From a virus (Duplodnaviria > Caudoviricetes): a DNA stretch of 64,000 nucleotides. Below, one piece after another: positions 29,400 through 58,898 of the stretch. The stretch is taken from IMG/VR virus record IMGVR_UViG_3300030055_000003; one strand, written 5' to 3'. Below the pieces are notes generated by a model that was not told the origin of the DNA, did no database searches, and saw only the letters and a list, made by a program, of their open reading frames with translations. The translations under genes were made by a program, and so were the position numbers. Numbering within the stretch: position 1 is the stretch's first letter; each line of letters opens with the position of its first letter.

Positions 29400-29470
29400 A
29401 TTCATTCTCCTCCTTATTTATACAATATAATTTATTAAATAGTTGGTAAAATTATCCTTTTAATTGGACT

Positions 29471-29692
29471 TTAATTTTCGTCTCCTAATCTACCTAAAGT
29501 TAATCCAGTATCGTTAGTTTCACCACAATGTGAACATATAACATATGGATAACCCATTTCTACTGAAGATGTTGATATTCTAGTTTCATTATATCCATTA
29601 CACTTACCACAAATATATTTTATCTTAGGTGATTTTCCAAATAACATTGATAAACTTACATTCAACATAGACAAATCTTTAACTTTAACCAT
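29471..29692 (-). CDS. Small zinc-finger protein
   Basis: CGKC...CSHC. Confidence 0.65.
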   Translation of the reverse strand: MVKVKDLSMLNVSLSMLFGKSPKIKYICGKCNGYNETRISTSSVEMGYPYVICSHCGETNDTGLTLGRLGDEN

Positions 29693-30291
29693 TATTTATC
29701 CTCCTTATCAATAACTATTTGTAATCTATCACCTATATAATCCTTACGCCATTGTTTATACTTAGGAGTATTGCATCTTCCAACTCCATTATTACAAGGT
29801 GTTATTTCTCTACAAAACCCAGAATAAACACATTCAGGAACACAATTATCATATAAAGGTCTATCTATCGTTTTTAATACTTTTAAAACATCATTCCATA
29901 CATCTTGTGCTTTTATATCTGCCTGTCCACAAATACGCTTTTTGCTTACATTTATAAATGCTTGAGCATTGAGTGTTATATCCATATTAACTAATTCACC
30001 CTGTCTTCTATCATCTCTATTGCCTTCATATTCTATTCTATCTTCTCGTTGTGTGCTTACATATGGAGTGTATCCTATACTATGACGTACAAAGTGAGTA
30101 GCCACCCAACTTCTTATTCCTCTGATTTGAATATTAAACCATTTATCTCTTATTGGACTATGTTCTGATTTATAAATATTTTCCATAAAAGTAACACTAG
30201 GTTCTTTTTCTAGACCTTCTTTCCAAACTGTGACTCTACATCTATTTAATACTTCTTGATTATTTGTTAGTTCTCTCACTGTTATATTCAT
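29692..30291 (-). CDS. thyX: FAD-dependent thymidylate synthase
   Basis: SEHSPIR, WVATHFVRHS...STQREDR (RHRx7SxR-like), PECVYSGFCRE. Confidence 0.85.
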   Translation of the reverse strand: MNITVRELTNNQEVLNRCRVTVWKEGLEKEPSVTFMENIYKSEHSPIRDKWFNIQIRGIRSWVATHFVRHSIGYTPYVSTQREDRIEYEGNRDDRRQGELVNMDITLNAQAFINVSKKRICGQADIKAQDVWNDVLKVLKTIDRPLYDNCVPECVYSGFCREITPCNNGVGRCNTPKYKQWRKDYIGDRLQIVIDKEDK

Positions 30292-30322
30292 ATTTTTAAT
30301 TCTCCATTCTTATATTAATTTA

Positions 30323-30625
30323 TTATACGAATTTCTTATTGTTTTCTACCATTGCATAACCTTTTACAACAATATCAAATTCTTCTTCAGTCCATCCACC
30401 CTCATTGTTGTTATTTGTAGTTTCTTTACTATTTTCATTTGATTTATTATGTAATTCATTTTTGTCATTTCTTAATTGTATAACTTCTTTTTGTAATTCT
30501 AATTTGTCTGCTTTAAGTAATTTATTTTCAAGCTTTAACCTATTAAGTTCTTTATATATCTCCATTAATGTTGGTTGTTCCTCTATTAATTTAAATTCCA
30601 TCTTTTCTTCGCATACATTACTCAT
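30323..30625 (-). CDS. Hypothetical coiled-coil protein
   Basis: ATG at 30625 after RBS GAGGGAGAG. Confidence 0.55.
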   Translation of the reverse strand: MSNVCEEKMEFKLIEEQPTLMEIYKELNRLKLENKLLKADKLELQKEVIQLRNDKNELHNKSNENSKETTNNNNEGGWTEEEFDIVVKGYAMVENNKKFV

Positions 30626-30678
30626 TTTATTCTCTCCCTCATAATTAATTATTTTTATTATTATTATATTAATTTGTC

Positions 30679-30987
30679 TTAGTCCCATAAATCACAATAA
30701 TATTCTGAAAATAAATTCATACCTTCTTCAAATCTTTTGTTTTCTTTATCTAAACTATTAGTGTTCCGATTATCTTTTAAATGGGCATCAAATGACCATA
30801 TCATTTTATCTATTATTTGATGCCATTCTTCCATTCCACTTAATCTACATGGATAACTCATTGTATTAATTTCTTTAAATTTTATTAATCTAGGCAATAT
30901 GAATTTTGACAACGTATAATCCAAACTCCATACTTCACTATTTTGTATTTTTGATACGCCTTTTTTCTTTCTTAATCTTTTATTCAC
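30679..30987 (-). CDS. Conserved phage hypothetical protein
   Basis: WSLDYTLSKFILPRL...EEWHQIIDKMIWSF...GMNLFSEYYCDLWD. Confidence 0.65.
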   Translation of the reverse strand: MNKRLRKKKGVSKIQNSEVWSLDYTLSKFILPRLIKFKEINTMSYPCRLSGMEEWHQIIDKMIWSFDAHLKDNRNTNSLDKENKRFEEGMNLFSEYYCDLWD

Positions 30988-31035
30988 TTATTTCACATCC
31001 TTTTAATATTTAACTTTTATGTTAATTTAATTTAT

Positions 31036-31203
31036 TTATTTTAGTCTAAACCAAGCTTTATAATAATTAATCTTACCCATATCTACTGGAACGTCATTCC
31101 ATGTAACTCCATCATCTAAACTATATTCCAAAGAGTTACAATCGTCATTATGTTGTTTATATACTGTTTGATATCCACCTTTATATATTTTATCTTTTTG
31201 CAT
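31036..31203 (-). CDS. Hypothetical protein (55 aa)
   Basis: Below the track cutoff; RBS AGAGGTGA; MQKDKIYKGGYQ...LEYSLDDGVTWNDV. Confidence 0.55.
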   Translation of the reverse strand: MQKDKIYKGGYQTVYKQHNDDCNSLEYSLDDGVTWNDVPVDMGKINYYKAWFRLK

Positions 31204-31214
31204 TAATATCACCT

Positions 31215-33263: not shown

Positions 33264-33366
33264 TTTTCTCTATCTCCTTCATTATATTAATTTGTTAATA
33301 ATTGTATTATGTAATATAATCTGTAAGGGCTTGTACTATTTAGAATTTAATTTCCCTTACAAGACT

Positions 33367-33415
33367 ATCTTACTACTTTATGAATATAATGTCAAACTAT
33401 TTATGTTAATTTGTT
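33367..33415 (-). promoter_or_regulatory. sigmaA promoter with upstream AAYAAATTAA(T/C)A box
   Basis: AACAAATTAACA-N8-TTGACA-N17-TAAGAT. Confidence 0.7.
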
Positions 33416-33426
33416 TAAATATTAAT

Positions 33427-34998: not shown

Positions 34999-35149
34999 CT
35001 TTTAAAATCTCCTTTTTATTATATTATATTAATTTATTAACCTCTTATTTATAATAGCATCTTTGGAATAATAATGCAATATGTTTATATTAATTTATTA
35101 ACTTGTTATAAAAGAAAAGACAGAACTTTTACATTCTGCCTAACTCAAT

Positions 35150-35374: not shown

Positions 35375-35490
35375 TATTTACTCTCCTTTTCTATTTCTTT
35401 TTTTAATTTATTTACAACCTTTTAAAAGTATGATTTTAACTGAATTTACCAACTTGGGAGGCTAGTAATAGCCCCATTTATAAATCCAAA

Positions 35491-37938: not shown

Positions 37939-37997
37939 CCTCGCTTTGTTTATATTAATTTATTAACTACCCTTAAAATATCTGCTTTATTGTGACT

Positions 37998-38967: not shown

Positions 38968-40926
38968 CTATTCACATTTAGTAAAGCCACAATCTACACA
39001 ACTTATACATCCACCAGAATGTTCTAGTTCATGTCCACATTCGGGGCATTTATTAAATCTTAATGCAAATGCAATATCCCCATTATCTTTTTTAAACTTT
39101 AATTCTTCATCTGTAAAGTTTGCTTTAGTTTCTACCATTTGTTCATTTAATTTATTTATTACTTCTATGGTTTGATTTGATATTTCTTTTAAAAATGTTT
39201 TTATTTCTCTTAATATAGCAGTTCCACAACTATTACCTTGACTTAATTGTATTCCTTTTGCTCTTTGAGTTGAAAAACTATTGCATCCACCAACACCTTC
39301 AAAAGATTTCTCTATATTGAATAAGTTTCCTCCTAGTCTTAACATACCACTCATTGCTATAACCATTCCTTGAAGATTTCTTTCACATCCTCCAGATCCT
39401 GACCTAATTACATACATGTCTTGTATTGCTTGTTCTGTATTTGACCAACCTATCATTAATTTAAGTTTGCCACAACCTATTTTAACTTTTCTTTCGTAGT
39501 AAACTGTATCCTTAGCTTTTGGCTTCCATTGACCTCTTTCTAAAGTTGATATTAATTCATTAGCTTTTTCTTCTTCTGTTTTTTCAGTAATCATTATACC
39601 TTGTCTTATAGGATTCGGTCTAAATATAGTGCAACCTTTAATTCCATTTTCCCAACAGAATTCATAAACCTTTTTAACATCTTCAAATGGATACTCAGTG
39701 GGGATATTAATAGTTTTACTACATGACATATCTACGTGAAATGCTATAGTTTTAAGAACATCTAAGTGTGCTTGTACAGGTAAATTCATTGCAGTAACAA
39801 AAATATCTTCTTTTACAATACAATCTTTATTACCTTTAATTTCATTCCATACTTTGTAAGCATAATCCTCCATCTTAACTATCTTAATATCATCATCTGA
39901 CTGACCACCTAATTTTACCTTCCTATCATACGATAGACTAAATATAGGTTCTAAGCCAGAACTTGTATTGCTCCCAAAAGTTAATGACATTGTGCCCGTG
40001 GGAGCAACGCTCATAATCTTTGAATTTCTGATGCCATATTTTAATATATCATCAGCTAAATCTATCCATTCATTGTCTTTTTCCATATGTTTTTGAATAT
40101 ATCCACTTTTAATGTACTTTTCTCTATCTAAGAATGGGAAGCCACCTTTTTCTTTAGCTAACTGAACACTTGCCTTAAAGGCTTCTTTTGATATGAAGTT
40201 CATTATTTCATCAATGACTTCTAATGATTCTTTACTTCCGTAAACCATATTTAACATACATAAAGCATCTCCAAGCCCAGTAATTCCAAGCCCTATAGTT
40301 CTAAATGCTTCTTGATAGTTTCTATATATTTCATCTGGGAAGTTATTTATATCAATTATATTATCTAAAAATTTAACTGCACTATGAGTTGTTTCGCTTA
40401 ATTTTTTATAATCAATCTTTGCTTTAGATGTAAAAGGATTATCTATCATATTATGTAAGAATATACTTCCTAGATTACATGCACCACCATAATCGTTACG
40501 GTTTAATGGTTCTTTTGTAATAGGGTTGTTCCCATAAACTGTTCCTGCTAAATACTCAGCACAAGGATTACTACAAACAATATTTTCTATATACCATACT
40601 GTATTATCTTTATTCATGTTATCATAGAAGAAAATCCCTGGCTCTCCATTATCATAAGCTTTCTTCATAATTGAATCCCATAAATATCTTGCACTTATTT
40701 CTTTCTTATATTTCCATTGTGATTCATCTTTTAAGACATATCCTTTATCATCATATACTGGATAGTGTAAGAATATAGTTTCATCTTTTTTAACAGAATT
40801 CATAAAATCATTATCAACCATAACTGTTACATTAAAATGAACTAGTTTTCCTTCATCATAAGATTTTGCATTTATAAAATCTTCAATGTCCATATTATAT
40901 ATTGAGCATACGCCCATATTTGCTCC
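38968..40926 (-). CDS. nrdJ: Class II (B12-dependent) ribonucleotide reductase, exon 2
   Basis: GANMG, NPCAEY (thiyl Cys), GACNLGS, SVAPTGT, C-terminal TSCPD-like and CxxC...CxxC; no nrdB/F partner nearby. Confidence 0.92.
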   Translation of the reverse strand, partial: GANMGVCSIYNMDIEDFINAKSYDEGKLVHFNVTVMVDNDFMNSVKKDETIFLHYPVYDDKGYVLKDESQWKYKKEISARYLWDSIMKKAYDNGEPGIFFYDNMNKDNTVWYIENIVCSNPCAEYLAGTVYGNNPITKEPLNRNDYGGACNLGSIFLHNMIDNPFTSKAKIDYKKLSETTHSAVKFLDNIIDINNFPDEIYRNYQEAFRTIGLGITGLGDALCMLNMVYGSKESLEVIDEIMNFISKEAFKASVQLAKEKGGFPFLDREKYIKSGYIQKHMEKDNEWIDLADDILKYGIRNSKIMSVAPTGTMSLTFGSNTSSGLEPIFSLSYDRKVKLGGQSDDDIKIVKMEDYAYKVWNEIKGNKDCIVKEDIFVTAMNLPVQAHLDVLKTIAFHVDMSCSKTINIPTEYPFEDVKKVYEFCWENGIKGCTIFRPNPIRQGIMITEKTEEEKANELISTLERGQWKPKAKDTVYYERKVKIGCGKLKLMIGWSNTEQAIQDMYVIRSGSGGCERNLQGMVIAMSGMLRLGGNLFNIEKSFEGVGGCNSFSTQRAKGIQLSQGNSCGTAILREIKTFLKEISNQTIEVINKLNEQMVETKANFTDEELKFKKDNGDIAFALRFNKCPECGHELEHSGGCISCVDCGFTKCE

Positions 40927-41966: not shown

Positions 41967-42407
41967 ACGTCTTCCACCTTGAAGTATTGTAGCAGTTTGT
42001 GCATTAAATACATCCATAAAGCTTACATTACCACTTGCTATAGCATCATTAGAAGTAGGAGTTCCTTTTGGTCTTAATTGCGAAAAATCGTAGCCTATTC
42101 CTCCTCCTTTTTGATGTGTTAAAGCTCCTAATTTTACTTTATTAAATATATCTTGTAAATCATCTTGTATTTGTGGGGCAACGAAACAATTATTTAATGT
42201 TAGGGATGTTCCTATTCCACTATTACTCATAGTTCTTCCTGCTGGATAAAATAATCCTTTATCTAATACATTATAAAATTCTTCTGCTTCTTTTTCATTA
42301 GTTGAACAGTAATCACTAACCCTATGTAAATTTTCATCAATTGATTCTCCGTTTTTAGAGTATCTATCTTCCCAAATTTTATAAAGTATTTCATTTTCGA
42401 TTTTCAT
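41967..42407 (-). CDS. nrdJ: Class II ribonucleotide reductase, exon 1
   Basis: IWEDRY, FYPAGR, LNNCFV, QKGGGIGYDFSQLRPKG, ASGNVSFM; 147 codons ending QGGRR. Confidence 0.92.
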
Positions 42408-42457
42408 ATCATTACCTCTTTCTTTCTATTAATTTATTATATAAACTATTTTCATAG

Positions 42458-46035: not shown

Positions 46036-46056
46036 ATTATTTCCTCCTTGATTACT

Positions 46057-46105
46057 ATAATATACCAACTAATTTATAAAGTCAATATGTATCTATTAAT
46101 TTATT
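46057..46105 (-). promoter_or_regulatory. sigmaA promoter with upstream AATAAATTAATA box
   Basis: AATAAATTAATA-N8-TTGACT-N17-TATTAT. Confidence 0.7.
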
Positions 46106-46679: not shown

Positions 46680-46706
46680 TCCTTCCTATGTATATTGAAT
46701 TATATT

Positions 46707-47570: not shown

Positions 47571-47659
47571 GTTGATACACTCCTTCTTATTTTAAATTTT
47601 ATTCTTTCTGTTTTTAATAGCTTATATATTGTATCATCTTTCATTATTAGTTTCTCCTT

Positions 47660-47920
47660 TTATATTTTAATTTCTGTTACTTCATCTTTAATTTCTATTT
47701 CTTTATCCTTATTAAAATCGTAATGTGTTGTGCTATTCATTGTAATTTTACTTTGAAAATAGAATTTTTCATTACAATTATCTGTTAAACATCTAGCTAC
47801 AAATTCTACATATTTTTGACTTTCTATTTCTACTAACTTGTAATCATTAGTTAATTGATAGTTGCATTGTTCACATCTTGGACAGTAGATTTTGTTTTCT
47901 TTTAGAATTGCTTTAAACAT
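47660..47920 (-). CDS. Zinc-ribbon protein
   Basis: CPRC...C....C. Confidence 0.6.
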   Translation of the reverse strand: MFKAILKENKIYCPRCEQCNYQLTNDYKLVEIESQKYVEFVARCLTDNCNEKFYFQSKITMNSTTHYDFNKDKEIEIKDEVTEIKI

Positions 47921-47941
47921 TTTGTTTTGCTTCCTTCTTTC

Positions 47942-48148
47942 TTAACTACATAATAATGTAACTGTAAGTTGCTTACCTTGATTATTTCTATAATAGTAAT
48001 AGGTATTTAAATAATCTATTTCTACATTGTATTCTTCAAATCCTAAGTCTTGTAATTCTTTAAATTTTAAGTTCATTTCTTTTATACTTTCTTCTTCCCA
48101 ATCACGGTATATGTAATCACCTTTATTTTGATCTATGAAAATATTCAT
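47942..48148 (-). CDS. Hypothetical protein
   Basis: ORF with RBS AAGGAGA. Confidence 0.55.
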   Translation of the reverse strand: MNIFIDQNKGDYIYRDWEEESIKEMNLKFKELQDLGFEEYNVEIDYLNTYYYYRNNQGKQLTVTLLCS

Positions 48149-48179
48149 TTATTAATTTATCTCCTTTATTCTTTATTTT

Positions 48180-48335
48180 TTAAACTATAGTGGGTTGTTC
48201 ATTTATTGTAAACATAACATCAGATAACATATCATGTTTTGCTAACTTTTCATCATCTGATATTGCTTGATACAACACCATGTCATAATATTTTCTTAAT
48301 TCATCTTTAAGTTTATCTGCATCTATTAATCTCAT
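48180..48335 (-). CDS. Small phage protein of the MRLIDAD type (51 aa)
   Basis: Below the track cutoff; MRLIDADKLK...INEQPTIV; RBS AAGGAGA. Confidence 0.65.
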   Translation of the reverse strand: MRLIDADKLKDELRKYYDMVLYQAISDDEKLAKHDMLSDVMFTINEQPTIV

Positions 48336-48399
48336 TCTATATTTTTCTCCTTTTTATATATTATTTAATTTATTTAACTAGTTAAAATTCGACATTTAA

Positions 48400-48603
48400 C
48401 TAGATTTGTTCAGATTCAATTAATGTCTTACATATCTTTCTTATTTCCAATTCTAAACCTTTTTCATTATTTATCTTTTCATAAAATTGTTCTTTATTAA
48501 TTTTTAATTCTTCCAACAGAATATTTTCAAATATTATATGTATATCATTTGTTTTAGTATCCAAGTACACTTCAAATAGTTTAACTTTATTTTCTTGTAA
48601 CAT
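48400..48603 (-). CDS. Hypothetical protein
   Basis: ORF with RBS AAGGAGA. Confidence 0.55.
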   Translation of the reverse strand: MLQENKVKLFEVYLDTKTNDIHIIFENILLEELKINKEQFYEKINNEKGLELEIRKICKTLIESEQI

Positions 48604-48635
48604 CTTTTATTTCTCCTTTAATTATATTAATTTAT

Positions 48636-48938
48636 TTACTTTTTTATGTATCCACAGTCACAACCATATTTATACATGGTTTCATATACTTCTCTTCCTT
48701 GCATCTCTCCTCTTGGCTCGTCCCATTTATCAAGAAGAATTAAGCTTTCGCCACAGCTAGGACATCTATCAGTTCTGTCAGCTAGTGAGTTCTTATCTTC
48801 TTCTAATTTATCGGCTAGTTCTTTAGGATTTTTACGAATATCTGAAACTAATATATTCAAATCTTGTATTGTTTCACTTACTTCATGATTATTCCTATTT
48901 ATCATTTGTATTAATTCATATGTATCTGTATTTATCAA
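48636..48938 (-). CDS. Hypothetical protein with C-terminal zinc ribbon
   Basis: RCPSCG...CDCG. Confidence 0.6.
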   Translation of the reverse strand: MINTDTYELIQMINRNNHEVSETIQDLNILVSDIRKNPKELADKLEEDKNSLADRTDRCPSCGESLILLDKWDEPRGEMQGREVYETMYKYGCDCGYIKK

Positions 48939-48973
48939 TTTCTTATCACCTCTTTCCTTTATTGGTTAATCTT

Positions 48974-49022
48974 AGTTTACTACTTACAAAGTTATTTGTC
49001 AACTTAATTCTATTAATTTATT
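48974..49022 (-). promoter_or_regulatory. sigmaA promoter with upstream AATAAATTAATA box
   Basis: AATAAATTAATA-N8-TTGACA-N17-TAAACT. Confidence 0.7.
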
Positions 49023-49038
49023 TAAGTTTATATAATTT

Positions 49039-49070
49039 AAGCTAACAAGATTTTGTTTCCTGTTAGCTTT
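49039..49070 (-). terminator. Terminator after the topoisomerase operon
   Basis: AAGCTAACA...TGTTAGCTT stem. Confidence 0.6.
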
Positions 49071-49124
49071 AATATTAGCATTATTGGATTGTTATGTCAA
49101 TAGTTTGTTTATAGTTTTGTTAAT

Positions 49125-51194
49125 TTATTGTTTAATTGATAGAACTTTTGCTGAGGTTACTTTCCAGTTCTCCTTTTTTGATTTAAAAACTGTAACCCCT
49201 TGGGTTGAACGTGATGATTTTGCATTTACATTAGATGTATTAATGACTTTCACTTTGTTAAATGAATCAGTTAATTCTATTTCTACATCATCTGTTATTT
49301 GAACAATCAATAAAGGTAATCCATTCTCACTACTAGTCAAACAATTGGACAACTTAGTTCTATTGGTTTTCGTCTCATAACTTGAAAGATTAACCTTAGC
49401 TATTTTACCTGAATCATAGACTATAACTACATAGCCTTTATAATTATTTGTACATAACATTCCTATAATTGATTCATCATTAGATAGTCCTAACATAGTA
49501 GGAAGATATATGCCTAATTGTGATGGCTTAGATTCAGATATATCTGATAAGTTTAACATATAAGCATCACCTTTATTTGATATAAATATTACCTTACCTT
49601 TATTTGAGCATTGAATGGTACTAATGACTTCATCGTTTTCTTTTAATTTTTGATTATCTGCATCTGCAAATCTTCTTGTTTTCTTATAATACATACTATT
49701 TGTTAAAATATTTGTAGTTGTAAAATCTTCAATTAAATCCCTATTATCTATTTTAATGACTTTATCTTCATATAGGATATCTGTTTTTCTAGTTTGATTA
49801 TACTTCTTTTTAACTTCGTCAAGTTGTTCAATGATAATGTTATTTATATTTTCTTCTAAAGATAAGGTACTAGATATATTTTCTATTTCTTTAGATATAT
49901 TATCAACATCTTTTATTCTATTATTTATATAACCTTTATTAATATTTAATAATTTAATAGATACAACATATTCTGCTTGTTCTTTATCTAAATTAAATTC
50001 ATGCATAACATTATTAGTTGCGTCATCATCATTTTTTGAATTTCTTATCACCTCTAAAACTCTATCTAAATCTACCAATATTGATTTCAAGCCAGTCAAT
50101 TTATGTAATCTATCATTTAATTTATCATAATCAAATTGTAATTCGTTTTTAATACATACTTGTCTATGATAAATCCATTTATTAAAAATATCTTGTAATG
50201 ATACTAATACTGGAGTTTTTCCATCTAAGTCAAGTATTGTAAAATTACAAGCAAACTTACTTTCATAGGATGTAAATTTTCTTAATTTTTGAATTACTGT
50301 CTCAATATCTGCATTCTTTTTTAAATATAATTCTAGTTTTAGACCATCTTTATCTGAACCATTGTGATAATCAGTTAATTCTTTAGAGAATTTGTCTATG
50401 TTATTTTCTAGTTCATCTTCTATATTTTCAATATAAGTAGTATAAGGAATTTCATAAATTGTAATTGTATTAGTATCTTTGTCATATTTATATTTTCCAA
50501 GTATAGTAAATGACCCATTTCCAGTTGTATAAATTTTATCAAATATGTTTTTGTCATAAATAATTTGACCACCACTAGGTAAATCAGGGACTTTTATTAA
50601 CTCAATTGATTTATTTATATCTTTTGTTTTTATATATGATGTTATACTACTACAAACATCTTCCATATTATGAGAAGGCATTCTATTTGCTTCTGCAACT
50701 GCAATACTTATTCTCAAATTGGTTAGTATATTAGGTATTTTAGATGGTAGGAATACGGGTTCTTTTTCAGTGGCATCATAATTCCATTTCATTGGAACTG
50801 CATTTTTATTTATCCCTTCCAACATGTTTTCAGCATATGTATCTAGCTTGCATTCTATATATCTAGGAGCTGAACCTTTACCATCTCTAGAATTCTTATT
50901 TCCATAACTTCCTTTAGGGACTAAATATTTGTTTAATGAATAATTATTTCCTAGATTCTTCATAACTCCATAAAGCGGAGCATCTCCTAATGTATAATAA
51001 TTAAATATAGCACCACCAGCTTTTAACATTTTATAAAATTGTTTATCGCTTGTCATTCCTGCTTTTTTCATCCCCCAAATAACTTGTCTCTGAGAAACTA
51101 ATAATCCATCTATTGATGGCAAATTATTAATTATTACAGGTGCAGTAAAATCTAACATTTCGGTTTGTAAAACTTCTACTATTCCTTTTTTCAT
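49125..51194 (-). CDS. gyrA: Type IIA topoisomerase subunit A (GyrA/ParC-like)
   Basis: LPSIDGL, GDAPLY, SAPRY (catalytic Tyr), EPVFLPS, PDLPSGG, IYEIPY; reduced C-terminal pinwheel repeats. Gyrase versus topo IV activity cannot be assigned. Confidence 0.85.
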   Translation of the reverse strand: MKKGIVEVLQTEMLDFTAPVIINNLPSIDGLLVSQRQVIWGMKKAGMTSDKQFYKMLKAGGAIFNYYTLGDAPLYGVMKNLGNNYSLNKYLVPKGSYGNKNSRDGKGSAPRYIECKLDTYAENMLEGINKNAVPMKWNYDATEKEPVFLPSKIPNILTNLRISIAVAEANRMPSHNMEDVCSSITSYIKTKDINKSIELIKVPDLPSGGQIIYDKNIFDKIYTTGNGSFTILGKYKYDKDTNTITIYEIPYTTYIENIEDELENNIDKFSKELTDYHNGSDKDGLKLELYLKKNADIETVIQKLRKFTSYESKFACNFTILDLDGKTPVLVSLQDIFNKWIYHRQVCIKNELQFDYDKLNDRLHKLTGLKSILVDLDRVLEVIRNSKNDDDATNNVMHEFNLDKEQAEYVVSIKLLNINKGYINNRIKDVDNISKEIENISSTLSLEENINNIIIEQLDEVKKKYNQTRKTDILYEDKVIKIDNRDLIEDFTTTNILTNSMYYKKTRRFADADNQKLKENDEVISTIQCSNKGKVIFISNKGDAYMLNLSDISESKPSQLGIYLPTMLGLSNDESIIGMLCTNNYKGYVVIVYDSGKIAKVNLSSYETKTNRTKLSNCLTSSENGLPLLIVQITDDVEIELTDSFNKVKVINTSNVNAKSSRSTQGVTVFKSKKENWKVTSAKVLSIKQ

Positions 51195-51207
51195 TTTATA
51201 ATTCCTC

Positions 51208-53208
51208 CTAATTAATTTCTTCTAAGTTTACATTTGTTATAAATTCTTTAACGAATTCCTTTCTTGGCTGAGTATTCTCTCCCATATAATCTTCAAAATA
51301 CTTAGCTACAATTTCATCAAAATTATCATATGTAACTTGAATAAATGTCTTCTCTCTAACTTCTGGACACAATACCTTTTCCCAAAAATCATCGGCATTT
51401 ATTTCTCCGATTCCTTTCACTATTCCTATATTGTATATATCATTAGTGTCTATTGTCTTCATTAATTCTTCTTTTTCTCTGTCATTATATGCATATATCA
51501 TTTCTCCACTTTTCATTTTAATTTCATATCTTGGAGAAATTATTATATAAACTCTATCTTCTTTTAATAAAGTTGGTAAATATTTATATATAAAAGTTAA
51601 TAAGGCAAGACGAATTCCTGACCCCCAGCAATCAGCATCTGTAAGTATTCCTATATTTCCATATCTTAAATTGTTCTTATCAAATGTTTTTATATCTTTG
51701 AATGCTTTCCTTTCTTCATATGGAATTTCTATACCACAACCTAATGCAGATATTAAAGTAAACGCAGGAACATTATTTAAAACTCTATCTACAGTGGTTT
51801 TTAAACAGGAAATAAATCTTCCTTTCAAACCAACAGCTCCCATCGTATTATTATCATAACTATCAACTACTGTAGATTTAGCAGAAAGCCCTTCCACAAC
51901 TAATAAAAATCTTTCATCTAATGCACTTTTCTTCATATTGCAATCTGTCAAACCCTCTATTTTAACTCTTCCGCTTTTATTTGCTTCTTCAAGTTTCTTT
52001 TTTATGTTCTTTTTAGCAACTTCTCCATGTTCTCGTACTCTTTTATTAATTAATATTTGATTGCTTATAAGTGAACCAATTAATGGATTCTCAGTAAAAA
52101 AGATATATAATTTCTCTCTTAAAAAATCAGTTACATGAGATTGCATAAATTTAGATTTAATCTTTTTCTTAGCTTGATCTGTATATAATGAAATAGTTGA
52201 ATATGTATCACTAATTATTACTAAACTGTCTTGAATATCGTCAAATGTCACTTTCTTTTCTTTGTTTTTATATAAATTTTTTTCAGTTATGTATTTGTCA
52301 ATAGCATAAGTAAATCCATTTTTAATAAAGTCTTGGGGCGTTCCCCCATTTTCAAGAAAGGAAGAATTGTGATAGTACTGAATTAAATTAATATCATTAT
52401 TAAAGGCAAAAGTGATATTAGACTTAATGACGAATATCTCATCATCTTTATTTTCTCGACCTTCTCCTTCAGTTGTCCATTTAATTATATCTGTTAAAGA
52501 TGATTGTTTAGTATCTAATTCTTTAATATAATCAATAGTTCCATTTTCATAATAAAAAACTAATTCTTCATCTGTATTTTCATCTTTATAAGTAAATTTC
52601 AAGTCATCATTTATAATTGCTTGTTGTTGCAATATATCAATTATAAATTCTTTTGTTATATCATTATCGCCTTTAAATACTTCTTTAGATGGTATCCAAT
52701 GTATGATAGTTCCAGTAGAATCAAAATTATGAGTAGTTTCTTCAAACTCACCAACTTGAATTCCTTTTTCATACCTTACATGATATTTTATATTGTTAGG
52801 TGCAAATGCAGTAGCCTCTAAAAAATCAGCAGTCGCCGAGCTACCAAAATTTCCCATTCCATTTGTGCCACATGACCATTTATAATTACCATTTTTAGTT
52901 TTTGAATTGTTTTCATATTTTCCACCAGACCACATTTCTTCAAATATCTTTTTATAAGCATATTCCCCTTGTGAATTTTTAGCCATTGGTAACGAACGTC
53001 CAAAATCTTGAATAGAAATAGAATTATCTTTATATTTTGTTACTATGATTTGTTTTCCATATCCTTCTCTATATTCATCAATAGCATTCATTAGTATTTC
53101 TATGAATGTATGTGAATGAGATTCAAGTCCTATTGACGCAGGTTTTGCACGTACTCCACCTAAAATACCTAATGATTGTATTGAGTCTGTATTATATGTG
53201 TTGCTCAT
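51208..53208 (-). CDS. gyrB: Type IIA topoisomerase subunit B (GyrB/ParE-like)
   Basis: GHKL ATPase EILMNAIDE, DFGRSLP, GGKY, NGMG; TOPRIM VEGLSA, TDADCWG, KGIGEIN. Confidence 0.88.
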   Translation of the reverse strand: MSNTYNTDSIQSLGILGGVRAKPASIGLESHSHTFIEILMNAIDEYREGYGKQIIVTKYKDNSISIQDFGRSLPMAKNSQGEYAYKKIFEEMWSGGKYENNSKTKNGNYKWSCGTNGMGNFGSSATADFLEATAFAPNNIKYHVRYEKGIQVGEFEETTHNFDSTGTIIHWIPSKEVFKGDNDITKEFIIDILQQQAIINDDLKFTYKDENTDEELVFYYENGTIDYIKELDTKQSSLTDIIKWTTEGEGRENKDDEIFVIKSNITFAFNNDINLIQYYHNSSFLENGGTPQDFIKNGFTYAIDKYITEKNLYKNKEKKVTFDDIQDSLVIISDTYSTISLYTDQAKKKIKSKFMQSHVTDFLREKLYIFFTENPLIGSLISNQILINKRVREHGEVAKKNIKKKLEEANKSGRVKIEGLTDCNMKKSALDERFLLVVEGLSAKSTVVDSYDNNTMGAVGLKGRFISCLKTTVDRVLNNVPAFTLISALGCGIEIPYEERKAFKDIKTFDKNNLRYGNIGILTDADCWGSGIRLALLTFIYKYLPTLLKEDRVYIIISPRYEIKMKSGEMIYAYNDREKEELMKTIDTNDIYNIGIVKGIGEINADDFWEKVLCPEVREKTFIQVTYDNFDEIVAKYFEDYMGENTQPRKEFVKEFITNVNLEEIN

Positions 53209-53286
53209 TATGATATTACCTCCTGTAAGTTTAAATTTTTAAATTGTTCTTTTACCTCTCTTTTAATTATATTAATTTATTTAAAT

Positions 53287-53520
53287 CTAATATGTAAGTT
53301 TGTAAATATCATAGTCAATATCAGTAAGACTCTCATATTCCAATAGTTTTACATCTTCATCATATTCTTCTTTTAATTTAGTCAGTAAGATATCTCTGAT
53401 AGTCTCATCTCTTTCAAAATCATCAACTATATCAATATCTTCCTCAATAGTCATAACTGTATCTGTATGTATTTCATGACCATCTCTATAAAGTTCTATT
53501 AAACATTTGTAATCTATCAT
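53287..53520 (-). CDS. Hypothetical acidic protein
   Basis: ORF in the early array. Confidence 0.55.
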   Translation of the reverse strand: MIDYKCLIELYRDGHEIHTDTVMTIEEDIDIVDDFERDETIRDILLTKLKEEYDEDVKLLEYESLTDIDYDIYKLTY

Positions 53521-53823
53521 CTATACTTCCTCACTTTCTAAATCAATTTTAAATTCAAATTTATATGGTAAGTCTGAATTATTAAATGTTAAAAAATCAT
53601 TAAAGTTAGCAACAAACTTCTCTATTCTATCATCTATTCCAACTTCTTCAACCATTAAATCTTGAAAGCAAGTAGTATTACCTTTTTCATTAGTGATATA
53701 ATACCAAACGTCATATGCACAGTAATCACCACTAATTTCAACTTTATTTACTTCATATTCTTTTTGAGTCTCAAACCCATTTTCTATATCTTGTTCAAAC
53801 AAGCCATTTAATTTAATCTTCAT
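53521..53823 (-). CDS. Hypothetical protein
   Basis: ORF with RBS AAGGAGA. Confidence 0.55.
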   Translation of the reverse strand: MKIKLNGLFEQDIENGFETQKEYEVNKVEISGDYCAYDVWYYITNEKGNTTCFQDLMVEEVGIDDRIEKFVANFNDFLTFNNSDLPYKFEFKIDLESEEV

Positions 53824-53886
53824 TTCAATATCTCCTTACATCTATTAATTTATTAATACCCTTTAAAATTTCTCTTTTAAGACCAT

Positions 53887-54570
53887 CTAATTAAAATAAC
53901 TTTGCTTATACCAGTAACAGTCAAAAGCATTATCAACACAAAAATGTTCATCATGATAGTCTTTATCTTTAAACTCATGAAAATATCCAAATTTCAATAT
54001 TCGTTTTTCTGTCTCATCTAATTGTTGATCTTCATCAATTTTCTTGTGAACACCTTCAATAGTATCTGATAAATACATTCCCTCTCTGCCATCACAACAA
54101 CCAAAGAATATCTTATATGTATATAGTAATTCAGCAGTATTTAATAAGATTTGTTTTACATCATTATCATATCCAAATCTTTCTTGATTAAAATTAATAC
54201 TTCTAATTAAATCACCATCATTATGCCTCAAAGTTGCAGACTTCAAATCAGCTAATAATTCCATAATATCAATTAAAGTCATGCCTTGTATTCCATTTCT
54301 AAAGTGTTCTGGATGATGTCTATTTGAATTATAATGATGACTTAATGCTACTTGCATTTCTTTAAGGAATTCCTTATATTCATCACTTCCATATGTACTT
54401 CCAACTAATTTAGGAGTATATTCACAAAATATTTCTACTTCAGGACTTTCTAATTTACTTTTATCATGAAGTTTACCTCTTTGTTCTAAGTCTAAACTCC
54501 ATTTGTTCAATATATTCTTTACATTGTCAATATGTTTCTGAGTTTCTTTTCTACATTCTTTAATATTCAT
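53887..54570 (-). CDS. DUF5662-family HD-like protein
   Basis: HIDNV...LHDKSKL...HHYNSNRHHPEH...IMELLADL; ATG at 54570 after GGAGGA. Confidence 0.7.
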   Translation of the reverse strand: MNIKECRKETQKHIDNVKNILNKWSLDLEQRGKLHDKSKLESPEVEIFCEYTPKLVGSTYGSDEYKEFLKEMQVALSHHYNSNRHHPEHFRNGIQGMTLIDIMELLADLKSATLRHNDGDLIRSINFNQERFGYDNDVKQILLNTAELLYTYKIFFGCCDGREGMYLSDTIEGVHKKIDEDQQLDETEKRILKFGYFHEFKDKDYHDEHFCVDNAFDCYWYKQSYFN

Positions 54571-54929
54571 TCTTATTTGTCCTCCTTTTAATACAATTGT
54601 TCTTTTACATTCTTTAATATATCTTGGGACTCTTTCATCCACAATCCCACTTATCATTTATTAATCCTTCTTTTAACATTTCTTAAATCCAACCTTGTAC
54701 TGTATTTAATCTGTAGTATAAAGCTTTTCTTTCCTCATATTCAAAGCATCTTAAATCCTTTGGCATTTAAATTCTACCACCTTTCTATATTAATTTATTA
54801 TATTCTTATAAAATGCGAATTTGATTTAAATTTAGTTCTATAATATTCGTATTACTATTATATTTTATCGTAATTTTTATCACTTCTGAACTTTTCTAAG
54901 TTACATCATTCGTATTTTATATTTGTAAT

Positions 54930-55268
54930 TTATATGAATTTGATTTTTAGAAAATTCTCTAAATAGTAACAATATTTATTATAAAGTTCTTCTGATACAT
55001 TTTCTAATTGTATATTTGTCTTTTTCAATTCTTTTTCTTTGAACCCACAAATCCAGTGTTTGTTTGATTTTTCATCATAACTTAATACATATACATAATT
55101 ATCTATTCCAGACCAATTTTTAATTATCCCTATTTGCTCTTTATCCATTTCATCTTTTGGAACTATTACTACTTCGCCAATATGAAAATCATGTTTGTTG
55201 TTACTATAATATTCTTCATGTTTTTTAACATAATAAATAAATTCTTCTTCTGATAATGTTTTTCTCAT
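54930..55268 (-). CDS. Hypothetical protein (SH3-like barrel possible)
   Basis: FHIGEVVIVP...GIIK...VYV...FKEKELKK. Confidence 0.55.
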   Translation of the reverse strand: MRKTLSEEEFIYYVKKHEEYYSNNKHDFHIGEVVIVPKDEMDKEQIGIIKNWSGIDNYVYVLSYDEKSNKHWICGFKEKELKKTNIQLENVSEELYNKYCYYLENFLKIKFI

Positions 55269-55597
55269 AATCTCACCTCTTTACTTTTCATCCACATATT
55301 AAACCTGTTAAATTGTGCCTCAACCATATAACATAAATCTTTTAATTCTGATTCTATATCCTTTTTGACTAAAACATTTTCTTCATCAATTAGTTCTTCA
55401 ACTGATTTAACTAAAGATTTTGTTATAATAGAAAATCTATCAACTTGTTTTTTAATATCTTGAATGCCATCTTCTCTTCCTTTAAAGTATTCTCCTCTAA
55501 ACAATAATATGAACACTTGTCTTTGTTCTTTGGATATCTTATTTCCTTCAATTAATTCGTCCACTAACTTTTCAATTTCTTTATCTTCCTTACTCAT
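55265..55597 (-). CDS. Hypothetical protein
   Basis: ORF with RBS AGAGGTGA. Confidence 0.55.
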   Translation of the reverse strand: MSKEDKEIEKLVDELIEGNKISKEQRQVFILLFRGEYFKGREDGIQDIKKQVDRFSIITKSLVKSVEELIDEENVLVKKDIESELKDLCYMVEAQFNRFNMWMKSKEVRL

Positions 55598-55648
55598 AAT
55601 TTCACCTCTTTTACTTCTATTAATTTATTTCCAAATAAAACAAGCTTT

Positions 55649-56083
55649 TTAAAACGATGTAGTATAATCCGTGTTGCAATTATTTATAGCTTTTTCAGGA
55701 TTTTCAAAAATATTTCCTATGATTTCAATGTCTTCATTACATTCTAATTCAGACCAAGATTCAAAATTATCTCTTTGTAAATACCATCCTGCATTCATAC
55801 CTAATCCATCATGTAAATTTGCTAAATATGTAACTACGTAGCCAGAACTATCAATATATCCTTCATAGATTTCTTTGTTGTTTTTATCTTTAAATCCTAC
55901 ATATTCTAAAAGTATATATCTTTCAGATACATCTATTTTTTCTAAATGTTCCATTCCCCAGTAACCTTTTAGACTTACTTCATATATTTTTCCATCAGCT
56001 AAATACAAATCATATCCATCAAGTTCATCCATACAATTATTAACTTTATCCCAAACTTTATATTTATGTTTTCTACTCATCAA
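55649..56083 (-). CDS. YopX-family protein
   Basis: HKYKVWDK...LLEYVGFKDKNNKEIYEG...IEIIGNIFENPE. Confidence 0.9.
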   Translation of the reverse strand: MMSRKHKYKVWDKVNNCMDELDGYDLYLADGKIYEVSLKGYWGMEHLEKIDVSERYILLEYVGFKDKNNKEIYEGYIDSSGYVVTYLANLHDGLGMNAGWYLQRDNFESWSELECNEDIEIIGNIFENPEKAINNCNTDYTTSF

Positions 56084-56312
56084 TTTCGCTCTCCAATCTA
56101 TCTATTTTTCTTTCTAGTTCGTCATTATAACTATTAGCATCGTCTAGTTCAGCTTCAAGTTCCTCTATTCTAATAACACTTCCATCTACATTATTAAAAC
56201 TATCTTCAAGCAACTCAAATATTTCTTTATCTATGTACTCTTTAATTTGTGGCAATATATTTTGCTTTTCATAAATTGTAACTGTTTGTCCATTCTCCAA
56301 TGTTATAACCAT
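56073..56312 (-). CDS. Hypothetical coiled-coil protein
   Basis: RBS AAGGAGGG. Confidence 0.6.
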   Translation of the reverse strand: MVITLENGQTVTIYEKQNILPQIKEYIDKEIFELLEDSFNNVDGSVIRIEELEAELDDANSYNDELERKIDRLESEIDE

Positions 56313-56314
56313 AT

Positions 56315-56473
56315 TTACTCGCCCTCCTTATTTTTAACTATTGGTCGTTCTTTAAATATATCATTTAACATTTGTGTGGCTTCTTCATATGAATAATTAT
56401 ATTCTCTACACCACTTATAGATAACTTCGTTTAATTCATTTATTAATTCTTCTTTGCTAGTTCTATATTTCAT
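56315..56473 (-). CDS. Hypothetical protein (52 aa)
   Basis: Below the track cutoff; RBS GAGGAGGG; MKYRTSKEELINELNEVIYKWCREY. Confidence 0.55.
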   Translation of the reverse strand: MKYRTSKEELINELNEVIYKWCREYNYSYEEATQMLNDIFKERPIVKNKEGE

Positions 56474-56690
56474 TATTACCCTCCTCACTTATTTTTCTGA
56501 TACCTAAATCATTGTTTTCTTTTATAAATTCAGATTTACCACCTAATAATATCGCTCCTGTATATATTTGACCTTTTAATAAGTCATCTATCATATTTTC
56601 TATTCTATTAATAACTTCTTTATGATCTTCATCATTAGTAAATCCAAAATTTAAACTTAAATTAAATCCTATTATTTTGTTGTTATTCAT
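56463..56690 (-). CDS. Hypothetical protein
   Basis: RBS AAGGAGA. Confidence 0.55.
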   Translation of the reverse strand: MNNNKIIGFNLSLNFGFTNDEDHKEVINRIENMIDDLLKGQIYTGAILLGGKSEFIKENNDLGIRKISEEGNNEI

Positions 56691-56697
56691 TTGTGTA

Positions 56698-56913
56698 TCA
56701 TCTCCTTAATATTACAATTTCTTTAACATCATCAAAATCGATTTCCATTTCTGAATTTTCTCTATTCAAATAAATTGTACTTTCATCTGAAAAGTTATAG
56801 TCACCAATTAATATTTCATCATTATGTAAGTATATTTTTATGGTATCTCCTTCGTTAATAATTAAATCATTAAATTTTAAAGTCCATATTGTTTTTAAAT
56901 TCATTATTACCAA
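56698..56913 (-). CDS. Hypothetical protein
   Basis: ORF in the early array. Confidence 0.55.
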   Translation of the reverse strand: MVIMNLKTIWTLKFNDLIINEGDTIKIYLHNDEILIGDYNFSDESTIYLNRENSEMEIDFDDVKEIVILRR

Positions 56914-56920
56914 TCCTTCC

Positions 56921-57373
56921 TTATATTCTATTTTTGATATCTTTTAATTCTTCTTCTATAAATTTTACTCTTGCTTGTAAGTTTTCTTTTCTCTTTTGTT
57001 CAGAATATACAATAGATAAGTTATGAGCCTCCAATTCTGATTGCTTAAATTCATCTACTAAAATTTTATCAATTCCTTCTGATATGTAAAACTCACTATC
57101 ACAACAATTGCAGATTGCACAATGTTTTTGAAAGTCGTCATATAATACCGTTTCATCTTCTATACCTTTGTATTTGTTTATTTTATAATTATTAAATTTT
57201 ATACCTTCTTCTATACTTTGAACCAACTTGTTTTTATACTTTTCTTTAAATATTGTATGATTTAATTTATCTTTAATTTTAAAGCTAATATCTACTAATA
57301 ATATTGGAATAAATATTATTAAAATCATGAATATAATCATAAATAATATTATCAGTAATTCATTCATATTCAA
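56921..57373 (-). CDS. Membrane-anchored hypothetical protein
   Basis: N-terminal TM; CAICNCC motif. Confidence 0.6.
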   Translation of the reverse strand: MNMNELLIILFMIIFMILIIFIPILLVDISFKIKDKLNHTIFKEKYKNKLVQSIEEGIKFNNYKINKYKGIEDETVLYDDFQKHCAICNCCDSEFYISEGIDKILVDEFKQSELEAHNLSIVYSEQKRKENLQARVKFIEEELKDIKNRI

Positions 57374-57436
57374 TTATCACCCTTTCTTAATTACATTAAT
57401 TCGTTATATTCATTTAAAATCCAAGTTTTATTTGGA

Positions 57437-57724
57437 CTATGGTTTATCTTTAAAATCATCACAAGTAAAACCCCACCCACATGAACATTTATGTAATTTA
57501 CACCAACCACCCTCTATATAATATGGATAATTTTTAATAAAATTTTTACATCCTTCACATTCTCCTTCAAAACCTTGTAATGGTTCTGAAACATATATCC
57601 CATCATGTGTCTTTATTAGATTAATATTTTCCTTTTTAGGTAATGGATTATCTTCTAACCATTTAGCTTGAGTTTCTTTTTCTTCTTTAGTTGAAAAAAA
57701 TGCTTTTCTAAAATTTGCAAACAT
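57437..57724 (-). CDS. Hypothetical Cys-rich protein
   Basis: CEGCKNF...GWCKLH...FTCDDF. Confidence 0.6.
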   Translation of the reverse strand: MFANFRKAFFSTKEEKETQAKWLEDNPLPKKENINLIKTHDGIYVSEPLQGFEGECEGCKNFIKNYPYYIEGGWCKLHKCSCGWGFTCDDFKDKP

Positions 57725-57792
57725 AATTTCACTTCCTTCCATAAAATTATCTTACCATAGATTTTTAATTAATTCAATATGTTTCTATTAAT

Positions 57793-58047
57793 TTATTTAG
57801 ATTTATATAAGATCTTTATAACAATTTTATAATATAATCTAATGAAAAATCCCACTATATCATCAAAGAACCATTGTATTTTAGTAATAATCTTTTTATA
57901 CCAAGGTAAACTATTATAATATTCATAAATTAAATCCCATGCAGATTTCATATTATTTAATTGTTCTTGCCCTCTTTTACTTCTAGTAACTTCACTAGTA
58001 TCTATAGTTTCAATTGTTGAGCCATTTTTGAGTTCTATTTTATTCAT
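57793..58047 (-). CDS. Small protein with a terminase-like IxFxNGSxI motif
   Basis: MNKIELKNGSTIETIDTSEVTRSKRG; ATG at 58047 after GGAGAGTG. Confidence 0.55.
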   Translation of the reverse strand: MNKIELKNGSTIETIDTSEVTRSKRGQEQLNNMKSAWDLIYEYYNSLPWYKKIITKIQWFFDDIVGFFIRLYYKIVIKILYKSK

Positions 58048-58597
58048 TATTTTCACTCTCCATTCTAAATATTTCATTGTAAATATTAACATTATCATTA
58101 CACGTAAATACATCTATAATTTTGCTCTCGCCATTACTAAATTTAACTCTCATTTGATTAAATTTAAAATCATAACCTTCATAAATTTCAATAGGTAATC
58201 CATACATTGTATTAGGATAACTTTTAAATTTAGTATTATCAATAGTAGGTATTTTCTCCAATAATACTTTTAATGCAAATGTCCCTATTTCTATTTTATT
58301 GGCTACTGGCGGTAATTGATTTAACTTTTCTGCCAATTTATCTAAATCATCTAATGTTATTGGTTTTGACATTGAAGTACAACTAGCAAACTTATTTTTT
58401 CCTGTAAGAATTGCTTTTGCTAATATATCTTTTATTTGTGATTCATTTAATTCTTCAGATTCAGTATTAAAATAATAATTAGGTTTATAACCTTTAAAGA
58501 AAGAATTAGTATATTCTTCATCATCGCCTAAAATATATTTATAAGCTTCTATTCTATCTTCTTTAGTTAATGCAATCTTATTTAAATCTTTATTCAT
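58040..58597 (-). CDS. Hypothetical protein
   Basis: ORF coupled to its neighbours. Confidence 0.6.
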   Translation of the reverse strand: MNKDLNKIALTKEDRIEAYKYILGDDEEYTNSFFKGYKPNYYFNTESEELNESQIKDILAKAILTGKNKFASCTSMSKPITLDDLDKLAEKLNQLPPVANKIEIGTFALKVLLEKIPTIDNTKFKSYPNTMYGLPIEIYEGYDFKFNQMRVKFSNGESKIIDVFTCNDNVNIYNEIFRMESENNE

Positions 58598-58791
58598 TAT
58601 TTATCAACTCCCTTAAAGTAACTGTATTCTTCAAATATTTTATCAGATTCTATTCTTTTACCATCTACAAATAATCCACCTTTTCCCTTTTCTACTTTTT
58701 CATATTTGAAATTACATTCTTTTAAAATATCTTCGAAATCTTCATCAGTTAAATTGTTAAATATACTTTTATATTTTTCATTATCATCCAT
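58597..58791 (-). CDS. Hypothetical protein
   Basis: RBS AAGGGGA. Confidence 0.55.
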   Translation of the reverse strand: MDDNEKYKSIFNNLTDEDFEDILKECNFKYEKVEKGKGGLFVDGKRIESDKIFEEYSYFKGVDK

Positions 58792-58898
58792 TTTTTACAT
58801 CCCCTTTAATTATATTATATTCTATTAATTTATTAACTCCTGTTAAAATCATGTTTTTATGTGGTTTTTAACCTAGTATTCATGCCATTTACAAGGTG

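Follow-up and report, generated by a model that had tools for sequence, protein, structure and literature searches.

The 64,000-nucleotide stretch analysed here (the window, IMG/VR record IMGVR_UViG_3300030055_000003, Caudoviricetes) carries at many gene boundaries a composite element: a dyad (TAAAA-N6-TTTTA along transcription), a spacer of nearly fixed length, and an AT-rich box of the AATAAATTAATA type. What kind of site is repeated in this way? A sequence-only reading had proposed a phage-wide operator and promoter comparable to the SPbeta repeated element (SPBRE), which is bound by the repressor MrpR, or alternatively crossover points for the shuffling of single-gene cassettes. The best reading of the present analysis is that the composite consists of two abutting DNA-level sites rather than a single element. 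Judged from sequence, we give even chances to a repressor operator, of a stoperator-like kind, that abuts a junction site, itself perhaps a tyrosine-recombinase crossover point. Within this reading, held as a whole with the same divided confidence, the AT box would be a strand-polarised, lineage-specific counterpart of SPBRE in SPbeta and of Phi3TRE in phi3T. What the window newly contributes is the joining of the two sites at fixed spacing, together with box swaps that are specific to lineages.

The window comprises bases 56494-120493 of a 120,845-bp IMG/VR virus contig (26.7% G+C), which is recorded as linear with a CheckV completeness estimate of 49%. The same DNA is contained in at least 24 peat metagenome runs, and no RNA run was among the public runs listed as carrying it. 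The plus arm of the contig codes for tail, tape-measure and tail-fibre genes. The minus-strand replication arm, from window position 64000 down to 29471, encodes DNA polymerase III (Pol III) alpha, GyrB/GyrA, ribonucleotide reductase, NAD ligase, dUTPase and a Dam-like methylase. A megablast search with 20 kb against GenBank phages gave zero matches. Since the terminase is 37% identical to SPbeta YonF and the Pol III alpha 56% identical to that of Clostridioides phage pCD1602_4, protein similarity identifies a large SPbeta-like phage with a clostridial host.

The composite element and its two parts

All 11 composite sites that had been listed were found, on the minus (transcribed) strand, with the layout (W)TAAA(N)-N6-TTTTA, spacer, box and ribosome-binding site (RBS) along transcription. 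The spacing from dyad to box, put at 9 nt with a range of 6-10, was likewise borne out, as every site measures 6-10 nt. The spacer is 9 nt in six composites, 10 nt in three, 8 nt in one and 6 nt in one; the box is exact in 6 of the 11 and has 1-3 mismatches in the other 5. The composites, all on the minus strand, are as follows.

58823-58859: dyad 58844-58859, centre ACATGA; 9-nt spacer; exact box 58823-58834; then RBS
57394-57430: dyad 57415-57430, centre CTTGGA; 9-nt spacer; box variant with 3 mismatches
55618-55651: dyad 55636-55651, centre AGCTTG; 6-nt spacer; exact box 55618-55629
54788-54824: partial dyad at 54809, TCAAA..TTTTA; 9-nt spacer; exact box 54788-54799
53843-53879: dyad 53864-53879, centre GAGAAA; 9-nt spacer; exact box 53843-53854
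48363-48398: dyad 48383-48398, centre GTCGAA; 8-nt spacer; box variant with 2 mismatches
45701-45738: dyad 45723-45738, centre GAATAG; 10-nt spacer; box with 1 mismatch
43276-43312: dyad 43297-43312, centre TTGCTG; 9-nt spacer; exact box 43276-43287
37953-37989: dyad 37974-37989, centre CAGATA; 9-nt spacer; exact box 37953-37964
35401-35438: dyad 35423-35438, centre TCATAC; 10-nt spacer; box with 1 mismatch
29425-29462: dyad 29447-29462, centre GGATAA; 10-nt spacer; box variant with 3 mismatches; final junction of the minus arm

The association of the two parts is far from random. Of 80 boxes, 11 have a TTTTA whose end lies 9-10 nt upstream, versus 0.76% of control positions (p = 3e-11), and the strict form TTTTA-N9-box has 7 copies in the contig and 0 in a 3.2-Mb Clostridium metagenome-assembled genome (MAG). 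This MAG, the sole one of its genus that scans of bacterial genomes brought up, was used solely as AT-rich background. Taken alone, the loose dyad pattern is barely enriched (39 vs 27 +/- 5). The same 9-nt geometry can also arise without a dyad: on the minus strand at 35118-35141 / 35088-35113, an exact box is preceded at exactly 9 nt by a TTTTA that belongs to the T-tract of a predicted intrinsic terminator.

The box is abundant in its own right. The exact 12-mer AATAAATTAATA occurs 31 times in the contig, against 1.1-1.4 expected from Markov models of orders 1-3, and with up to 1 mismatch there are 55 copies in the window versus 15.0 +/- 4.1 in shuffles. Its density is 256 per Mb in the contig and 7 per Mb in the Clostridium MAG, where a reversed-pattern control is about equally frequent. 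All 31 exact copies point with local transcription (16 on the minus arm and 15 on the plus arm), as do 80 of the 88 contig copies with up to 1 mismatch, 63 of these 80 lying outside rough gene calls. The conserved block spans about 15-17 nt and reads (T)TAATAAATTAATA(G/T)AA. Because the box is strongly enriched and most of its copies are free of a dyad, the sequence-only reading had seen the dyad-bearing subset of a larger box family. Its placement of the element at early-gene boundaries holds for the composites and fails for the box, of which about 20 exact copies lack a dyad and 15 lie on the plus strand, 4 of these in the tail-fibre arm of the window. In four further exact copies the order is reversed, the box being followed by a dyad; all are on the plus arm upstream of the window (e.g. 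contig positions 1800, 9886 and 23836).

We classed the 31 exact copies by eye into position types. About 19 occupy the gap from a stop codon to the following Shine-Dalgarno sequence, and 5-6 lie 8-9 nt upstream of a near-consensus TTGACA-17-TATAAT promoter; at 8 or more minus-arm junctions the upstream stop codon falls inside the box. Representative copies are listed here.

30313-30324, minus strand: exact box without a dyad in the gap from stop codon to RBS, as also at 42427-42438, 48625-48636, 53270-53281 and 59273-59284
57786-57797, minus strand: exact box enclosing the upstream stop codon, with TTGAAT 8 nt later
3776-3787, plus strand: exact box oriented with the tail-fibre genes, as also at 6638-6649, 16611-16622 and 20753-20764

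The AT box as a putative operator

We judged 13 strong promoter matches by eye to be intergenic, and 9 of these are preceded by a box (up to 2 mismatches), in 6 cases 8-9 nt from the -35 hexamer; the four box-less ones adjoin opposite-strand or unplaced genes. At two loci (35099/35038 and 33421/33296) a box stands on both sides of the promoter. The arrangements, all on the minus strand, are given below in the direction of transcription.

35027-35099: promoter between two exact boxes; box 35088-35099, 8 nt, TTGCAT..TATTAT, box 35027-35038, RBS
46057-46105: exact box 46094-46105, 8 nt, sigmaA-type promoter TTGACT-17-TATTAT
48974-49129: first of two tandem box-plus-promoter units; box variant 49118-49129, 17 nt, TTGACA-17-TAATAT
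48974-49129: second unit; exact box 49011-49022, 8 nt, TTGACA-17-TAAACT
33285-33421: box variant, 8 nt, TTGACA-17-TAAGAT, leader, second box variant 33285-33296, immediately followed by the ligase-gene RBS
59598-59646: box 59635-59646 with 1 mismatch, 8 nt, TTGACT-17-TAGAAT

In the tandem arrangement at 48974-49129, the first promoter would transcribe just a short hairpin (AGCTAACAGG..CTTGTTAGCT) ahead of the second promoter; such a transcript could be a small RNA or an attenuator.

These promoters bear on the proposal that sigmaA would recognise the composite itself as a weak promoter, TTTAnn-N17-TAnAAn, whose -35 is the right arm of the dyad. The fixed spacer does place exactly 17 bp between TTTA and TA(G/T)AA, and the promoter scan returns TTAACA-16-TAGAAT at 58844. 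Yet the -35 matches at 3 of 6 positions, the last T of the -10 is present by inspection in only about 10 of the 31 exact boxes and in a minority of the 11 composites, and promoter-like matches do not exceed those in shuffles (173 vs 155 and 150 vs 158). With the real sigmaA promoters of the phage near consensus and downstream of boxes, we consider this proposal very improbable, and it was set aside.

A role in RNA was considered for each part. For the dyad, six folds were computed for a hairpin or terminator and none beat shuffles (z -0.87 to +1.41), so the element acts at the DNA level. For the box, the mRNA form AAUAAAUUAAUAGAA might enhance translation or serve as a processing site immediately ahead of the Shine-Dalgarno sequence, which would suit its same-strand polarity and its position 2-20 nt before the RBS in about 19 of 31 exact copies. 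Boxes 8-9 nt upstream of a -35, however, fall outside the transcript of that promoter, no structure rises above shuffles, and the replacement of the whole box from lineage to lineage (below) points to a specific trans-acting partner, which leaves an RNA-level signal a distinctly improbable explanation.

Among known systems, the box comes closest to SPBRE. MrpR binds SPBRE in chromatin affinity precipitation sequencing (ChAP-seq) and in electrophoretic mobility shift assays (PMC10516654). We derived the SPBRE sequence (..ACAAATACAAAWAATATGTATATA) from the SPbeta record, using the regions upstream of ten genes with MrpR ChAP-seq peaks (PMC10516654). SPBRE stands directly before the RBS at yopM and yopV, as the phage box does at many genes, and 4 nt upstream of the -35 at aimR and yonX, where the phage box keeps 8-9 nt; the yonX promoter has SPBRE on both sides, the same layout as at 35099/35038. 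In phi3T, SroF binds in monomeric form to an asymmetric AT-rich box of 26 bp, 24 bp of which it contacts, at sites genome-wide, and the boxes differ among SPbeta-like phages (bioRxiv 10.1101/2025.11.27.690993). The phage box thus shares with SPBRE and Phi3TRE the character of an asymmetric, AT-rich intergenic repeat of an SPbeta-like phage whose sequence varies among relatives. It differs in having no sequence similarity to SPBRE, in being strictly oriented with transcription, and in being fused to a dyad at fixed spacing at 11-12 sites. Accordingly, the analogy with SPBRE and MrpR stands for the AT box, which occupies the same position classes; it does not extend to the dyad, which is not what MrpR peaks mark (below).

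A second parallel is offered by the stoperators of cluster A mycobacteriophages (L5 gp71 type; PMC6550527, PMC9283540), which are dozens of short asymmetric sites on both arms, mostly in one orientation relative to transcription, in short intergenic gaps, with a motif that varies among related phages. Their repressor binds as a monomer, as reported for SroF; its fold is an unrelated one, and the motif is unrelated too.

By analogy with these systems, a trans-acting phage repressor, most likely a master repressor of the MrpR/SroF type with a tyrosine-recombinase fold, would bind the box. Bound 8-9 bp upstream of a -35, or on either side of a promoter, it would shut the sigmaA promoter; a footprint as large as the one solved for SroF, about 26 bp, would extend to a -35 lying 8 nt downstream. 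At the exact copies that separate a stop codon from an RBS (roughly 19 of 31) it may act as an orientation-dependent roadblock, comparable to the mycobacteriophage stoperators, and all box sites together would silence both arms in the prophage.

Comparison with relatives is consistent with such a trans-acting partner. The relative G001 (196 kb, with terminal repeats), whose GyrA is 68% identical to that of the contig, has 59 exact AATAAATTAATA boxes against 3 for a reversed-pattern control. In G004/L011 (GyrA 70% identical), AAATAAAATATA takes the place of AATAAATTAATA at corresponding places, and in L012 the box at corresponding places is TAATAATATAAA. G001 also has a gene for a YopQ/SroE homologue (genome search E 9e-17; BLASTP 28% identity and E 1e-19), followed by a 385-aa open reading frame (ORF; L016:2882-4039) that reaches the cut-off of the Pfam family MrpR_N_CB (27.3 bits). 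The pair of an MrpR-like and a YopQ/SroE-like gene is thus present in a relative that has this box too. The MrpR-like member of the pair was reached only via this YopQ-like neighbour, as a direct YopR search gave nothing usable in G000, G001 and G002.

A conserved 12-mer, TTGTCTACATTT, neighbours the sroE/F-like genes and has a box on each side (L019:8040-8110, L022:8050-8110 and L023:8100-8150, minus strand); it is probably the main controlled promoter or an additional binding site. Both boxes belong to the AACAAATTAATA type in G001 and in L022, and in G004 both are AAATAAAATATA. A trans-acting protein specific to each lineage would predict such a joint swap at an orthologous control region. 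SroF-like proteins of clade I go with AATAAATTAATA and that of G004 with AAATAAAATATA, a pairing that does not hold throughout (L024, below). Within the 20-kb neighbourhoods, we found no neighbour protein that tracks the box type, i.e. with high identity in L024 and low identity in L023.

Three further observations were made among these relatives. A 99-aa ORF (L019:7406-7705, minus strand) accompanies the sroE/F-like genes in all five relatives examined, with 36-47% identity, and is a candidate for a small Sar-type antirepressor. At L011:14620-14680, a G004-type box and a AATAAATTAATA box stand in tandem behind a degenerate dyad-like stretch with centre GAATAG (by eye), which could be the trace of a junction imported from a phage of the other box type. 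A Clostridium MAG contig with an SroF-like gene (L027; G006 contig C7:75095-75628) has seven copies of a 12-mer at a spacing of mostly about 65 bp, with two gaps near 130 bp, in a CRISPR-like or iteron-like pattern; this top repeated 12-mer of the MAG, tried as a dispersed box, was ruled out as a tandem array of about 65-bp period.

The box could instead be the promoter of an unrecognised phage RNA polymerase or sigma-like factor, with a start near the G/T after the box, and lineage-specific boxes would then mirror lineage-specific polymerases, as in T7, T3 and SP6. A contiguous, highly conserved block of about 15 nt, always gene-directed and directly upstream of RBSs in early and late arms, would fit such a promoter, and so would the joint swap of both boxes at the orthologous site, which any trans-acting factor would explain. 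On the other side, neither sigma-70 region 2 nor a T7-type RNA polymerase was found in the near-complete G001 and G004, and sigma-70 region 2 was also absent from G000; the T7-type search is a weak blank, since the family matched no control genome either. No YonO homologue was detected in G000, G001 or G002, a fragment of the G004 lineage, G004 itself not having been searched for YonO, and in SPbeta YonO uses a single late promoter (PMC5467207). The constant 8-9 nt to a sigmaA -35 and the two-box promoters are hard to explain in this way; moreover, some boxes end just 2-5 nt ahead of the Shine-Dalgarno sequence, and T is as frequent as a purine at the putative start. We regard a polymerase promoter as unlikely.

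If the box is an operator of the MrpR/SroF type, this kind of non-CI repression would extend from Bacillus to large clostridial peat phages, with a stoperator-like density across early and late genes. Lineage-specific boxes would then allow the immunity groups of uncultured phages to be approached directly by computation.

The dyad and its junction-specific centres

The dyad has a wider distribution than the box. In SPbeta the strict form TAAAA-N6-TTTTA is present 34 times, for the most part in gaps from a stop codon to the following RBS, and these copies are absent from the ten MrpR ChAP-seq peaks (PMC10516654), save where SPBRE is nearby. We read the dyad as a separate, family-wide site of SPbeta-like phages, with constant 5-bp arms and a centre that varies by junction. 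The dyads of the window have no centre in common with the 34 of SPbeta, which lends no support to an extension of centre conservation to SPbeta.

Between closer relatives the centres are kept. When the minus arm is compared with G001 or L011, most small genes have no homologue and similarity is confined to short colinear islands, several of which are exactly junction elements. At five syntenic junction pairs the 6-bp centre matches, with an unrelated upstream flank and a spacer that is only about 55-60% identical. GAGAAA, the centre at 53864, is shared by the phage, G001 (L013:932) and L011 (L011:5561), making two pairs with unrelated flanking genes; AGCTTG is shared with L011, where all 16 bp of the 55636-55651 dyad, whose TAA is the stop codon of the upstream gene, are identical at L011:2625; TCATAC at 35423 is identical at the syntenic G001 site L013:16608; and GAATAG at 45723 is found at the matching G001 position L013:9820 with a 1-nt indel. 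Over the five pairs, about 29-30 of 30 centre positions are identical, depending on how the GAATAG indel is aligned. By a rough estimate from base composition, a site has a probability near 0.005 of carrying a 6-mer identical to any one of about 8 centres. At two L011 junctions the box has changed and the 16-bp dyad is identical.

Exchange by a tyrosine recombinase, which needs identical overlaps in both partners, does explain centres that are junction-specific and conserved. The phage encodes two such enzymes, both near the end of the plus arm.

23798-24646, plus strand: XerD-like tyrosine recombinase of 282 aa, retaining the full catalytic set R, K, HxxR, H and Y
26848-27930, plus strand: YomM-like tyrosine recombinase of 360 aa (27% identity to the SPbeta protein), retaining R, K, HxxR, W and Y

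One or both of these intact recombinases would be the candidate enzymes for position-specific exchange at gene junctions that the dyads may mark. As the box begins 9 (6-10) nt after the dyad in the replication arm, each dyad-to-dyad unit would open with its own operator and RBS. The dyads might even be addressed crossover sites, such that a segment swaps only with the same position in a co-infecting relative, in a natural form of recombinase-mediated cassette exchange; we put this forward tentatively and think it doubtful. If it were true, imported genes would arrive pre-wired into prophage silencing, each unit bringing operator and RBS. The fusion of the box to a junction palindrome with position-specific centres also makes it testable how phage mosaics come to break so cleanly at gene borders.

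The obvious comparison is with the sites of XerC and XerD. A dif site has 28 bp, with 11-bp arms, a 6-bp centre and palindromic inner arm bases. The dyad resembles dif and pdif in its palindromic inner 5 bp on either side of a 6-bp centre, in outer flanks that are conserved and non-symmetric, in being encoded along with two tyrosine recombinases, one of them XerD-like, and in a centre that is kept between copies able to pair. It differs in that only its 5-bp arms are strongly conserved and its centre changes from site to site within one genome, and the phage recombinases could equally serve integration or multimer resolution. A test for Xer/dif-type arms found the 5-6-5 core with conserved flanks whose symmetry is not above a shuffled-partner control. 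Outer-flank complementarity is 0.42 vs 0.45 in the control for SPbeta and 0.35 vs 0.37 here, and the claim of an extended 11-6-11 palindrome was dropped.

An integron-like cassette array had also been suggested. Integron attC arrays comprise an IntI-type integrase, attI, the promoter Pc, and attC sites of 57-141 bp that fold as single strands. The element here has only 16 bp without a stable fold, the recombinase is closest to XerD (in a structural comparison XerD was the best relative and IntI4 far weaker), and nothing points to an integron-type system. The crossover alternative of the sequence-only reading thus gained comparative support for the dyad, from identical centres in three lineages next to flanking genes that are often non-homologous; its integron form gained none. 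In contigs of four peat DNA runs, the interval 42000-61999 yielded only joints with sides of about 20 nt at box copies; such joints are assembly-graph branches at a repeat and are uninformative on recombination.

A purely regulatory explanation is that the composite is a two-protein operator, in which a dimeric regulator, for example a helix-turn-helix protein or the second sro repressor, occupies the dyad and the master repressor occupies the box, the adjacent binding being cooperative or competitive. Half-sites 11 bp apart centre to centre would suit a dimer, the 9-10 nt from dyad to box is fixed, and SPbeta-like phages reportedly require a second repressor, SroE (bioRxiv 10.1101/2025.11.27.690993). 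Mosaic borders would then arise only from ordinary recombination over short homology at conserved junction patches, and the homology does run from the dyad through box and RBS to the ATG. There is precedent in the promoter(early)-stem-loop (PeSL) cassettes of T4-type phages (PMC2839356, PMC4122927), where a conserved intergenic motif likewise flanks small variable genes and the junction motifs are retained while the genes between them differ among relatives. A PeSL, however, combines a strong sigma-70 promoter with a true stem-loop terminator, and the phage composite has neither a consensus promoter nor an RNA fold. A dimer that reads only the arms would also leave unexplained why junction-specific centres stay identical while the spacer drifts to about 55-60%, and the orthologous L011 junctions with a changed box and an unchanged 16-bp dyad speak against it as well. 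We consider a two-protein operator improbable, though worth keeping in view.

Several observations weigh against our preferred reading of a repressor operator abutting a junction site. An MrpR/SroF-type gene was not found in the 121-kb contig, a fragment without the repressor region, and is seen only in relatives. One of these, L024, has an SroF-like protein of clade II (30% identical to that of G001 and 48% to that of G004) and yet a AATAAATTAATA box; as different SroF proteins show reported cross-immunity (PMC13220667), this exception weakens the assignment of box to repressor without removing it. SPbeta has about 10-13 SPBRE copies and nearly none in the late operon, whereas the phage box is 3-5x denser per kb and also occurs among structural genes. 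On the side of the dyad, the arms are just 5 bp and symmetry beyond them is no more than the consensus gives. The similar-centre pair 43297 / L011:12775 breaks colinearity, which means that centres do not follow a strictly conserved order. Since the junction homology also continues to the start codon, ordinary homologous exchange stays a live rival.

Other features of the phage

Four features of the window stand apart from the element. An IS-type transposase gene (rve, HTH_21) occupies 482-1450 on the minus strand, opposite to the plus arm in which it lies. At 15663-18381 (plus strand), two neighbouring tail-fibre-like proteins each have an N-terminal Mtd (major tropism determinant) domain. 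The ribonucleotide reductase large-subunit gene at 38968-41902 (minus strand) begins at position 78 of its Pfam profile and is preceded by a LAGLIDADG endonuclease gene and by a 154-nt gap of higher G+C content; by its sequence the locus resembles one interrupted by an intron or an intein-type insertion, comparable to bnrdE of SPbeta. Finally, a phage gene at 46707-47570 (minus strand) encodes a methyl-accepting chemotaxis protein signalling domain (102 bits) and is kept in G001 (54% identity) and L011 (47%).

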